From a virus (lineage: Duplodnaviria; Caudoviricetes): a stretch of DNA of 64,000 nucleotides. Positions 4,602 through 63,393 of the stretch are shown here, one piece after another. The notes under the pieces were generated by a model, which was not told the origin of the DNA, did no database searches, and was given only the letters and a program-made list of their open reading frames with translations. The DNA lies in IMG/VR virus record IMGVR_UViG_3300032030_000030, positions 40,697 to 104,696 of that record; one strand, 5' to 3'. The position numbers were made by a program, and so were the translations under genes. Positions within the stretch are counted from its first letter, which is position 1. The number at the start of each line of letters is the position of its first letter.

Positions 4602-4632
4602 CGCCAATCACTCGGTCAATCACTATCCATTG
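4602..4632 (+). promoter_or_regulatory. Conserved phage motif copy 1 (putative phage-specific/early promoter)
   Basis: CGCCAAT-CACTCGG-TCAATCACTATCCATTG, between a terminator and the gene at 4718. Confidence 0.7.
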
Positions 4633-4717
4633 AACCGCAACCAATTATGGTAATCAATTAACGGAGGTATAGCGGTTCTACCTCTATAAAACAAAAAACA
4701 TTTAAAAACTTTTAACC

Positions 4718-5323
4718 ATGAACGCATTTCTTTTTAACAACTTCGCATCAGCTAAGACAGTAGACATTCGTAAGGCACTCACAATGACAGCTCTCTCTTC
4801 GGAAGAGACGCTCGAGAACGGCACCAAGGTCAAGATTGAAGCCAGGGATGCCGTAGCCTTCGAGAAGGACCCTGACAATCGCTCTGAACTCAGCAACAAG
4901 GACATCACTCTCGCCTTCACATTCCGTCAGACTGTCGGCAGTGAGTCACAGGCGTACAAGATTTCTGCGCCGATTTCAACAGAACTCTGGGACGCATTGG
5001 ACGAGGGTCGTGAACTCATCAAGGTTCCTTACGCAGAAGACTACAATCGTTCTGACATCAAGGGCGCAAAGGAGAACTTGAAGAAACTTGCTGAACTCGA
5101 TGTCAAAATCTATGTCTTCGACGCTTGGGACGACAAGGCAGGTCAATATCCTACTGACAGCGAAGGCAAACCAATCTATGAGAACTTCATTGCAGGTTTG
5201 CCTGGTGAGTTCGAGATTGACCCTGACCAGCCGCGTAAGAAGGACAACATCGGCAAGAACAAGAAGGCTGCAACCGCAAAGTCTGTAAAGGCAGAAGCTG
5301 CTAACGAAGAGGAAATCTTCTAA
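4718..5323 (+). CDS. 201-aa protein A, paralog of 10595-11203; SSB-like acidic tail (EEEIF)
   Basis: Clean ORF with A-rich leader and biased codons; colinear similarity to protein B; function inferred only. Confidence 0.85.
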   Translation: MNAFLFNNFASAKTVDIRKALTMTALSSEETLENGTKVKIEARDAVAFEKDPDNRSELSNKDITLAFTFRQTVGSESQAYKISAPISTELWDALDEGRELIKVPYAEDYNRSDIKGAKENLKKLAELDVKIYVFDAWDDKAGQYPTDSEGKPIYENFIAGLPGEFEIDPDQPRKKDNIGKNKKAATAKSVKAEAANEEEIF

Positions 5324-5329
5324 CAACAT

Positions 5330-63000: not shown

Positions 63001-63338
63001 TTAGCAAATCTGTCGAACATGGAACGGCAATTATAGTAGGAGATGACCTTTGCAACAGAGAATGTTATCCTTGTATAGTATCTTCATACGAACAGGCTCA
63101 AACTCCATCTAATGACAGGTTTGGTAACGTAAGGTACGTTATGACGAGTGGAGACATAACACGTCTTGGTTCTACGAAGGACAAAACACAATTTGCGTCA
63201 TATGTGAAGTATGTTGCAAAACAGAGGTCTTCCAATACTATTTTAGACGACTCTAAGTTGAACGACGCCAATCTAACGAAAGACACGCTCAATGATATGT
63301 CTGCGATTGTAAGGGAGAAAATAGGGGAATGCCTGTAA
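54036..63338 (+). CDS. giant cargo/ejection protein with a zincin (HExxH) domain
   Basis: 3100 aa; YHEAYHAV...EEGLAE near the C-terminus; no DxDxD RNAP motif seen. Confidence 0.8.
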   Translation: MGEDELNNQQIQDPSEIGTEGLSGMNKYSTDQGMNMTRQAMDMMRSLQRRDGAIGSVQEFMQPFHQFEDIGEHYDLGNTPGLGESTFDDQITSVGQLEKLDDTRGLLQPWYAKWGAGFGKMVGLTATTFLDQTIGTIWGIGAIANSFIQGDGRGFSAFYDNDMSNYLRDVEEEMEKVMPNYRTDLEKTNAWYQNLGTANFWADTIFKNAGFTIGTALATAATMGASSALTGGRLAIGTETGLMSRGLGAAARGATRVSGAAATALGEATSAVGGEAKLAARGFRIMGQPLERVVTEQGITELRNYSVGTKLGVSMASALGETHSTASINLNQWRQNSQQNRTMEAMEQVRGLDEWKEKMLFNVDNDIDSVDDEIKKNFDENEYRNASKEMKKNMIESVYQSKVDNIISTRDFMIAEDDRRSKVAASANFAADMVLLTATNMFGTFSNFRAKLPGSERDIMVTTTMGKKLHDFKQFVAHPFDRSARQIYNGVAYKATGRFREGLKQATAEGLVEEGGQGVTSSAAYEYGYRYDEDERNEFGSYLGLIWDEAKKQYGDLRNYDEIFAGAVTGVLGVPFPHKIKDRNGNSHWSFWQGGIFSNEVKEQIAESEDVARKMNDTFSRLRDEGTASYVIGQRALDNLRTAYENGYDDEGYDETIAYKQLVDDVVYFALAGRTKDLMSLAGNPKLKVSKEEIDNLIKATDGAKSEGSEMLVNRLGLRDESGNLKALTKEDYDEIGKKIQDRRKQIEETIKDVRNVMAYVENKSNNYFSKEELKEVIWPFLAANHLRRNLAEYYGLAEKNPVVKMIEDRMLKYRSELEKYFNVKENEDGTRTIDIRNPKVPMDVKTKRQVRNLQRKYGFGSMLIEQLRGSARKSAEAGDVGATLDLANWGEKTEIPYNHKETLGEAFTEWLRDEFEEDYDNVIKNQFGEDSTVLDCLNDFVDYMNKSNVATKLMNDYKEKWNEYMEREDGKLKLREWVNFNREKIQKRDLDGLARRTKEKLLANRKAYEDGMKALNEEIAARMGQVDSSRITSAQKAVEKEFLEGERRSRKRQLEDEYRKGVASSFDEARGYGMGENQNNITMADRMTDRMFDDPDVGPSLQEMEELDALSNTMISLIKNHEGMSDAQKAVAIAMIQNDRAFYHNADEYRNESLTKDIRRWVRESSPLAINRNLDGTVSLEETQLGNYINNLLEGINIDGDLEAFKKQNFQYFADMILGFGSDNRFIEVGEDGKWKLTKQGTDLINAEAKRMLILNAMDSYNEFKERALDAIAENGFWGKEVFKKSEIKDLIDEINMFDVWNNWKTEPNNASETDSPSTEYIESVDLESEVTPVRNSDGEIVDFEGNVITRGQIMFNELGALALHVNNNLESAKEDGKVSFHFVETARLLDTFISLDDFAARPLLKQLMDEHRNATVDDVDYLFVRALAKSLRDKNSALAKMLEYYGGQQVKLPYEVKATFAGIANAVMGFDRFWRTAVGSLEDAASSNMYFSEDSEKSDKEISEGIFVLTNLIKNYDGNSTATKHLIEARKGFITDISNEELRNKFLKAEADNSIEDLQDNVESLFTRGAMSKLATDAVLNSENKDMGTAQKFAKPKAGEEMTDEEQAELAADTQAKAAENFVAEQVNSMQPQTSQYNINSLITNKEKNAEPMRYSEGVFYGDKNIDHDPKEIEDYLDKCGAFDFINSGELANWMESNENGDVYILTDEELNGTIQSPNGGRKNIKYSVKHDGAWIPCYFAYENATFFKDKYGDINVKFNGKPKLAKSEDGKNIPLANAQTVKFESNGKVEDVSPSVIMNSFIVSSQPNKFFAIKNGVDSNGKPKFQVLGLVPKVSGDYLSNGANASKYYSVGMNIQLLSDIMFNRFENSFSTSTTGQNKYSKYMYGLPTRMSGRGNYPHLGGRRASNGSPFGCTNILDAYQTEAFLYYSKMSEDEQKENKISVEKVDDKHIRVKKDGKTYVYEDKRTGKYKGEGYNVHMFFATAEQDKLVGKEFTEEGKPSALFTLADTVRAYQAATGKTLNDNERAEFEKGRKETLKEIAEFADSMLEENGDDYIESGNVVDGGSSIKAFKLKGQTVNYVSSAIFTYKKGENTTLSLSNERKYNGNTTTLGEMIDTGVASIGVVATDSQGKKNIVDAEGRHDYEGEMNSGTVILSMPNANGKQYRVPLVVSKYSVDKFGNDETINASFESAADFLLQIEKGQAIDSNSSDNPLFSAMNRINEAVHIPINQDIYVGRNEATGAKEYVRIHIKYNSSNDSIELYSTDGKDVFNKHSIPIDRRDDGKQYIVDSLKKAVASFDRPININLNAMSKDNAKEYINKGFLQTNLTSLEPVNAYFRVGAKNQNSGSVEFEHDNRIYKSFRETLNAISSASEKLTIDDNIITVQMGNIPMKFTIGTDIYGNQYITDEDGMRIGDDIKESLSRRFGLIEKGKHGRERSVGNILNVIKRIMYTQANSKIFGTRAFDKDHPRIHNGIYCFTFNSGPTIYFDSVTNKPVSESEWEDNAMDDEGQPVVPDGPAAVENTPTPQEEQKRVQEEPKPVQQENPVEQQEETTDEANDELTEDDVDEQLENALGDEELDREETEEYEQADLEDETRWLASVLPQFTLGERTFIVDHLDVVGKKGAKAWGKMKDACIYLANDASRGTAYHEAYHAVSILMLTPTERQDMYSEYKKYKNNHALSDKECEEGLAEMFRHYVQARELGNKHGMDKVFAWFKSLYHKIRLMIEYPSAARALFRRINSGKYANVNLDQSVNKFNTDALDLSKVDYEEKDKPWKTDPSKSNKTIRIYLKGQHNKGYFELVKDKEYGYYSVHFKTARDGGKYNAIDTEYTTKEERKTLFKELIKAIPDGGKVSTWGSLSEDGVRGLDNVGRNMTKVGEREVELKSNGSHIMIPIYQKGNVTTSESYRESSNVSDITPIIDTYETTEIAQIGSMADYMEYIEKSTANSSMRGIAYTTGYKEDGRVLVAQTPSGSFNSVTFNTFSKSVEHGTAIIVGDDLCNRECYPCIVSSYEQAQTPSNDRFGNVRYVMTSGDITRLGSTKDKTQFASYVKYVAKQRSSNTILDDSKLNDANLTKDTLNDMSAIVREKIGECL

Positions 63339-63363
63339 TCGGCAAAACGGCTATGGCTTATAA

Positions 63364-63393
63364 CGCCAATTACATTTCAATAACTTTCCATTG
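63364..63393 (+). promoter_or_regulatory. Conserved phage motif copy 4
   Basis: CGCCAAT-TACATT-TCAATAACTTTCCATTG. Confidence 0.7.

Follow-up and report, generated by a model that had tools for sequence, protein, structure and literature searches.

A bipartite motif of 30-32 nt stands at the heads of four transcription units in a 64,000-nt stretch of phage DNA, referred to here as the window (positions 40697-104696 of the 104,696-nt IMG/VR record IMGVR_UViG_3300032030_000030), and probably acts as a phage-specific promoter that joins these units in one regulon. The units begin with protein A, a long structured RNA (RNA1), protein B, which is a paralogue of A, and a second long structured RNA (RNA2). 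A close relative retains the motif, and a sister lineage carries a different motif at the same places. The signal may be read by the virion RNA polymerase (vRNAP) of the phage, which would make the units immediate-early, an assignment that is plausible but tentative.

The motif comprises an upstream box of 7-8 nt (ACGCCAAT), a spacer of 6-8 nt and a core of about 17 nt (TCA..AC..TCYATTG). Exact matches to the pattern were found at four sites (copies 1-4, Table 1), against no match in 100 dinucleotide-preserving shuffles. A relaxed pattern returned the same four sites and no others in the whole record, with zero expected. All four copies lie in non-coding DNA of a genome that is about 90% coding, each is oriented into the downstream unit, and copies 1 and 2 lie immediately 3' of a terminator or hairpin that ends the preceding operon. 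The 8-mer ACGCCAAT occurs nine times in the genome against approximately three expected, and seven of these occurrences lie in motif control regions facing the downstream unit: copies 2-4, two lone boxes, and a tandem pair at a fifth site with a deviant core. At four of the five sites, box and conserved core keep a fixed spacing and orientation, and the motif-bearing gaps have no other promoter-like signal in common. The exact motif has no match in IMG/VR. Repeated, oriented, intergenic, placed at unit heads and conserved in relatives, the motif has the properties of a phage-specific promoter. A preliminary description of this DNA had reported four intergenic sites pointing into units, and these were recovered in full, with none inside genes in the genome-wide scan; as a complete set they fall short, the tandem-box fifth site and the lone boxes having been overlooked.

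Contigs from relatives were found through protein look-ups and one metagenome scan, and the comparison covered the A/RNA1/B side in two of them (L006 and L022) and the RNA2 side in a third (L020). L006, a 106.5-kb rumen contig whose protein A is 80% identical to that of the window, retains every comparable site, namely the first three motif copies, the tandem boxes and the lone box that precedes copy 3, with small changes in each. The sister lineage is represented by L022 (103 kb, A 45% identical), L017 (A 50% identical) and L020 (ORF behind RNA2 69% identical), and none of these contigs has an intergenic ACGCCAAT. At the equivalent positions they carry a motif composed of GGGGACKT, a spacer of 6-9 nt and a TCTnnTACT core, and all five places are covered by the three contigs combined. 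The GGGGACKT 8-mer occurs exactly four times in 20.6 kb of L022, always intergenic and always at a sister-motif site, and is absent from the genome of the window. The sites thus keep their positions but carry another signal throughout, as expected of a cis element co-evolving with a lineage-specific trans factor, and this pattern argues for a phage-specific promoter or operator of that kind. The earlier proposal of one regulon stands in so far as one lineage-specific control signal precedes RNA1, RNA2 and the units of A and B, its place being taken in the sister lineage by a different motif. Neither box type is present at L018, a still more distant locus (A 40% identical), and no comparable motif was found in the G+C-rich soil contigs L023-L027 (26-28% identity to A). 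A core common to both motif types was considered and is not claimed, since the cross-type position weight matrix (PWM) test was weak and its alignment register was hand-chosen.

Although listed as linear, the record represents either a complete circle or a circularly permuted genome of approximately 104,555 nt, as the 141 nt at its start recur at its end with one mismatch (genome 1-141 and 104556-104696, the latter being window 63860-64000). The fourth unit therefore continues beyond the end of the window. A 3795-aa ORF (genome 29155-40542) with a DFDVD motif matches gp66, the virion RNA polymerase of phage phi14:2 (PDB 6VR4, E=2.5e-22), and this match marks the rumen phage as crAss-like, as had been supposed. 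The vRNAP gene and a 1558-aa gene are followed by a terminator, copy 1, gene A and about ten small genes, the last of which is a NADAR-domain gene. Copy 2, RNA1, a terminator and an origin-like region come next, and then gene B, which is headed by copy 3 and is the sole minus-strand gene of the genome, all others being on the plus strand. A host-type promoter, tRNA genes and a structural arm ending in a 3100-aa gene complete the order, with copy 4 and RNA2 behind them.

The housekeeping promoter of Bacteroidota consists of a -33 TTTG and a -7 TAnnTTTG separated by about 19-21 nt. Complete promoters of this host type (TTTG-N17-23-TAnnTTTG) occur three times in non-coding DNA (genome 19340, genome 29095 and window 11543), and the copy at genome 29095 is directly upstream of the vRNAP gene. 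The present motif is absent from long operons, and the vRNAP operon and the tRNA/structural operon carry host-type promoters. The statement that structural genes use TAnnTTTG is thus borne out by the promoter at 11543 and is only partly true, with just three complete copies in non-coding DNA. A phage-encoded sigma factor was considered and set aside, as a search of the genome gave none that was recognizable.

Taken together, a bipartite phage-specific promoter would head short units that lack a host-type promoter: the operon from A to the NADAR gene, RNA1, gene B, a leftward transcript over the origin-like region, and RNA2 with its tRNAs, the last of these units probably extending to the replication arm behind. 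A lineage-specific trans factor would read the box, the preferred candidate being the injected vRNAP, and the units would be linked by co-regulation rather than by a physical complex, RNA1 and RNA2 acting as independent structured RNAs. In its most specific form, which is put forward with still less confidence than the choice of polymerase, the motif would be the natural promoter of a crAss-like vRNAP, built from a swappable specificity box and a core, and the first products would be two structured RNAs, tRNAs, two proteins resembling single-stranded DNA-binding proteins (SSB) and an origin-activating transcript.

Among crAss-like phages, which are the most abundant gut phages, the only case studied in this respect is Cellulophaga phage phi14:2, and its transcription programme offers the closest comparison. 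Host RNA polymerase (RNAP) makes its middle and late RNAs and gp66 its early RNAs, two long non-coding RNAs are abundant from the earliest time point, and the logo of its middle promoters shows Bacteroidota-type blocks (Drobysheva et al., preprint 10.1101/2020.03.07.982082). The layout described here fits this scheme, with the motif located where vRNAP promoters would be. The two phages share a homologous giant vRNAP, and in both the late genes and the operon of this enzyme have two-block promoters of host type; long non-coding RNAs are a further common feature, those of phi14:2 being highly expressed and located in its early region. They differ in that no motif common to the early transcripts was seen in phi14:2 whereas the motif here is clear, and in that RNA1 and RNA2 lack sequence similarity to the phi14:2 non-coding region, part of which is a predicted transfer-messenger RNA (tmRNA).

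Coliphage N4, which injects its polymerase, also places a few phage-private signals at the heads of its first units; its promoters are short DNA hairpins with a stem of 5-7 bp and a loop of 3 nt, and the N4 SSB takes part in early and late transcription. The likeness to N4 would lie in the small number of private signals heading the first units of a polymerase-injecting phage, and in a part played by SSB-type proteins. N4 promoters differ from the present motif, however, in that DNA folds of six motif sites share no hairpin, and two of the four sites of the window fold no better than shuffles. The polymerases are also unrelated, being T7-like in N4 and of the two-barrel type here. In the literature searched, nothing comparable was found for the promoter of a crAss-like vRNAP, and no consensus has been published. 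The new elements are the exchange of the box at all sites together from one sister lineage to the other, a cargo made up of large RNAs, tRNAs and SSB-like paralogues, and the origin-facing site. The motif exists as two natural alleles at identical positions of sister phages, which provides a template for in-vitro transcription and box-swap tests, and it would indicate the possible first products of these phages: two large RNAs, a tRNA set, the SSB-like proteins A and B and a NADAR enzyme.

RNA1 is conserved, its first ~560 nt being about 97% identical to L006 against 80% for protein A, and its 3' half is common to L022 (E=1.6e-38). Of its 77 predicted pairs, 17 remain paired in a three-way alignment despite changes in both partners, among them the majority of those in one hairpin and a single pair in helix P1 of an HDV-like element. 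RNA2 was compared with its homologue in L020, and of 227 predicted pairs 10 are compensatory and 0 broken. A search of both RNAs against Rfam 15 (ROOL, GOLLD, OLE, RNase P, tmRNA, group I/II introns and others) gave no hit that reached the gathering threshold and no meaningful one at E up to 1, and ARAGORN detected no tmRNA in either. Homology to the phi14:2 non-coding region was also sought with nhmmer, and none was found at E up to 10. Judged by this conservation, RNA1 and RNA2 are real, structured RNAs without a match among the catalogued families. The structure previously attributed to both is thus upheld by compensatory change, while the length of RNA2, put at no less than 600 nt, is actually about 900 nt, crossing the circular junction. 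Behind RNA2 lie tRNA-Ile, two odd tRNA-like genes, tRNA-Ala and conserved non-coding sequence, and no ORF of at least 100 aa precedes the first ORF at genome 1864. Relative to window 9650-9707, L006 has an insertion of ~165 nt just before the HDV-like element (15951-16087) and another of ~575 nt with two small ORFs just after it (16184-16745). The ends of RNA1 are therefore insertion hot spots.

Proteins A and B are paralogues, as had been noted, with 27% identity in BLASTP (E=9e-9), and no other protein encoded by the genome matches the family profile. The family is tiny, with 9 hits among 1.8 billion representative proteins, and IMG/VR holds no close relatives of A, of B or of the end of the 3100-aa protein. 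Neither protein has a sequence match in Pfam, PHROG or the PDB (the last also searched with the family profile), an hmmscan of all 10 family members with the SSB profile PF00436 gave no hit at E up to 10, and no PF00436 SSB was found elsewhere in the genome. An AlphaFold model of A built with ten homologues has a core pLDDT of about 90. Foldseek lists SSB and DUF669 proteins for A, weakly, and the nearest ESM Atlas cluster to A and B is named SSB family (score 0.93), with DUF669 as the nearest Pfam-bearing cluster and a weak neighbour. An acidic run followed by E-I/P-F ends A, A', B, B' and P0006, and more distant homologues lack this tip. In bacterial SSB and T7 gp2.5, an acidic tip ending in Phe is the element that docks partner proteins, and the tip of A and B would do likewise. 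A and B resemble SSB (PF00436) and T7 gp2.5-type (DUF669) proteins in a putative OB-like beta core and in a flexible acidic tail with terminal Phe, but differ in the lack of any sequence match to these databases and in the very small size of the family. On the strength of the model and these leads, A and B are more probably than not SSB-like proteins. The A homologue again lies behind two giant genes in L017, L018 and L022. In the leader of gene A, a hairpin at 4664-4686 has a conserved loop (GCGGTTC), and double changes in its stem keep the pairing in L006 (~9945-9970); a hairpin behind the NADAR gene (~8880-8915) likewise shows compensatory changes in L006.

The tandem boxes of the fifth site would head a fifth unit that crosses a probable replication origin. 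The origin-like layout is the same in L022 (13250-13770) and similar in L018 (11800-12345), with a tract of 100-200 nt across lineages, and in the genome of the window, L006 and L022 the region is faced by tandem promoter boxes of the lineage's own type. This arrangement may reflect transcription-activated replication, and the motif sites thereby point to a transcription-linked origin region.

Several observations weigh against these readings. The authors of the phi14:2 study saw no common motif upstream of gp66 transcripts (10.1101/2020.03.07.982082). A separate DNA-binding protein would explain the core-less lone boxes no less well than a polymerase. Core sequences resemble each other weakly between the two types of motif, and a PWM of one type ranks the sites of the other 16, 29, 184 and >400 of 209,000 positions. 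Two short contigs, L011 and L012, begin 11 and 58 nt past copy 1 and have a common 3' end at 5815 that lacks a terminator, and a third contig, from the sample of L011, reads through copy 4. As to the proteins, the best structural neighbours of A are mostly OB-fold single-strand binders (Rim1, PriB, bacterial SSBs and RPA) but are weak (Z 3.8-4.2), and a profile comparison by hhalign with T7 gp2.5 gave a probability of 0.1. By this comparison A was not recognized as a gp2.5 homologue; L011 and L012 were rejected as transcripts, their shared 3' end without a terminator indicating that the ends are probably assembly breaks.

The two blocks of the motif, ~17-19 nt apart, are spaced like a -35/-10 pair, and the core shares its final TTG with the Bacteroidota -7 block; the motif also lacks a hairpin of the N4 vRNAP type, and the core-less lone boxes are conserved as a transcription-factor site would be. 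These features would suit a promoter of the host RNAP aided by a phage-encoded box-binding activator or appropriator, with the core as a variant -7 and the units middle-class. This alternative deserves serious attention but is unlikely: neither block matches the Bacteroidota type, as no -33 TTTG or TAnnTTTG occurs at any motif site while proper copies occur elsewhere in the genome, no sigma factor is detectable, and the cargo of the units (NADAR, tRNAs and SSB-like proteins) is typical of take-over and expected first. The lone boxes kept in L006, and the tandem boxes beside the iteron-like repeats, AT-rich block and polypurine tract of the origin-like region, could also suggest that the box is an operator or iteron of a phage DNA-binding protein (a replication initiator or repressor), with the true promoters elsewhere in those gaps. 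Such a role is improbable in view of the box and conserved core at fixed spacing and orientation at most sites, the position of the sites directly between terminators and units, and the lack of another shared promoter-like signal in the gaps. A module-boundary or recombination sequence, or a mobile-element target, homogenized within the genome and without a role in transcription, is scarcely credible. Copies do lie at module borders and L006 differs by insertions near RNA1, but exchange-promoting sequences should be common to lineages, whereas here the signals differ and the positions are kept; strict orientation to the downstream unit would be unexpected, and no repeats or endonuclease genes flank the copies.

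The preliminary description had gone further and proposed that A and B might bind RNA1 and RNA2 as ribonucleoprotein machines for host take-over or anti-defence. The shared motif, and the fact that A, B and RNA1 occur together in the genome of the window, L006 and L022, are compatible with this, and OB folds can bind RNA, but the idea is very improbable. The co-occurrence is plain synteny among close relatives, and a distant A homologue at the L018 locus has no RNA1 match. The fold and language-model leads point to OB-fold proteins of the single-stranded DNA-binding type, the tip of A and B is of the kind that docks replication partners in such proteins, and RNA2 heads a tRNA cluster. The designation as a new system was overstated, and a shared promoter is the more fitting description of what probably connects these units.

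Table 1. Features of the motif-headed units and their counterparts in relatives (window positions unless a contig or the genome is named).
Feature	Position	Strand	Remarks
Motif copy 1	4602-4632	+	Box CCGCCAAT, not ACGCCAAT, plus core; 18 nt past terminator 4559-4584; 86 nt before ATG of A; L006 9885-9915
Motif copy 2	8936-8965	+	Kept at L006 15001-15030
Motif copy 3	11267-11298	-	64 nt before ATG of B; kept at L006 18270-18300
Motif copy 4	63364-63393	+	26 nt past stop of 3100-aa virion-protein gene
Fifth site, two tandem ACGCCAAT boxes, deviant core	10363-10395	-	L006 17330 and 17355; L022 13769(-) with its own box type
Lone ACGCCAAT box	11365-11372	-	73 nt upstream of copy 3; kept in L006
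Lone ACGCCAAT box	63265-63272	+	98 nt upstream of copy 4, within 3' end of 3100-aa gene
Sister motif before A homologue	L022 9896; L017 9901		
Sister motif before RNA1 homologue	L022 12540		
Sister motif before B homologue	L022 15301	-	
Sister motif facing origin-like region	L022 13769	-	
Sister motif before RNA2 homologue	L020 7389		
Host-type promoter (TTTG, spacer, TAnnTTTG)	11543-11574	+	Heads tRNA cluster and structural arm
Protein A, 201 aa	4718-5323	+	OB-fold-like core (predicted), acidic C-terminal tip ending EEEIF; first gene of operon running to NADAR gene
NADAR-domain gene	8099-8854	+	Last gene of unit 1
RNA1	8966-9652	+	No credible ORF
HDV-like (theta-like) element, 3' end of RNA1	9653-9707	+	P1 (columns 751-756 with 779-784) pairs through double change in L006
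19-bp intrinsic terminator ending unit 2	9840-9882	+	
Fifth unit (putative), origin-like region	9900-10362	-	CGTGGG-N-CTTGCTAAG twice, AT-rich block, ~100-nt polypurine/polypyrimidine tract (~10000-10100)
B-unit terminator	10433-10456	-	
Protein B, 202 aa	10595-11203	-	Paralogue of A; tip ending DNDEIF
RNA2	63394-64000, over circular junction to ~genome 433	+	~900 nt in all

The 3100-aa gene before copy 4 (window 54036-63338) has a homologue in L020 (1-7335) with an ART-PolyVal domain (PF18760), and the giant gene is therefore a polyvalent cargo protein, not an RNA polymerase. Among the tRNA-like genes, which lie at the genome start (L005) behind RNA2, ARAGORN called a tRNA at L005 580-653 whose anticodon has four bases (gggt) and to which no amino acid is assigned, and a 102-nt tRNA-like gene at L005 764-865 (Rfam, 35 bits) may contain an insert or intron. 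An abiF RNA motif was detected by Rfam at window 11782-11818(+), between tRNA-Asn and the first tRNA-Met, with 47.9 bits against a gathering score of 37.

In phi14:2 (L029, NC_021806), ARAGORN predicts a tmRNA (tag GSSVQKLAMVA) at 4031-4500 within a 1.7-kb gene-free stretch between g004 and g006. The phi14:2 record lists no RNA feature at these positions, and abundant long non-coding RNAs have been reported from the junctions of the stretch; one of them may thus be a phage tmRNA. Acidic tails also recur among small proteins of the units described here: the 145-aa product of the first ORF beyond RNA2 and its tRNA genes (L005 1864-2301) ends in DDDDDWEE, and a 120-aa ORF at L018 11033-11395 ends in an Asp run and a final Phe.

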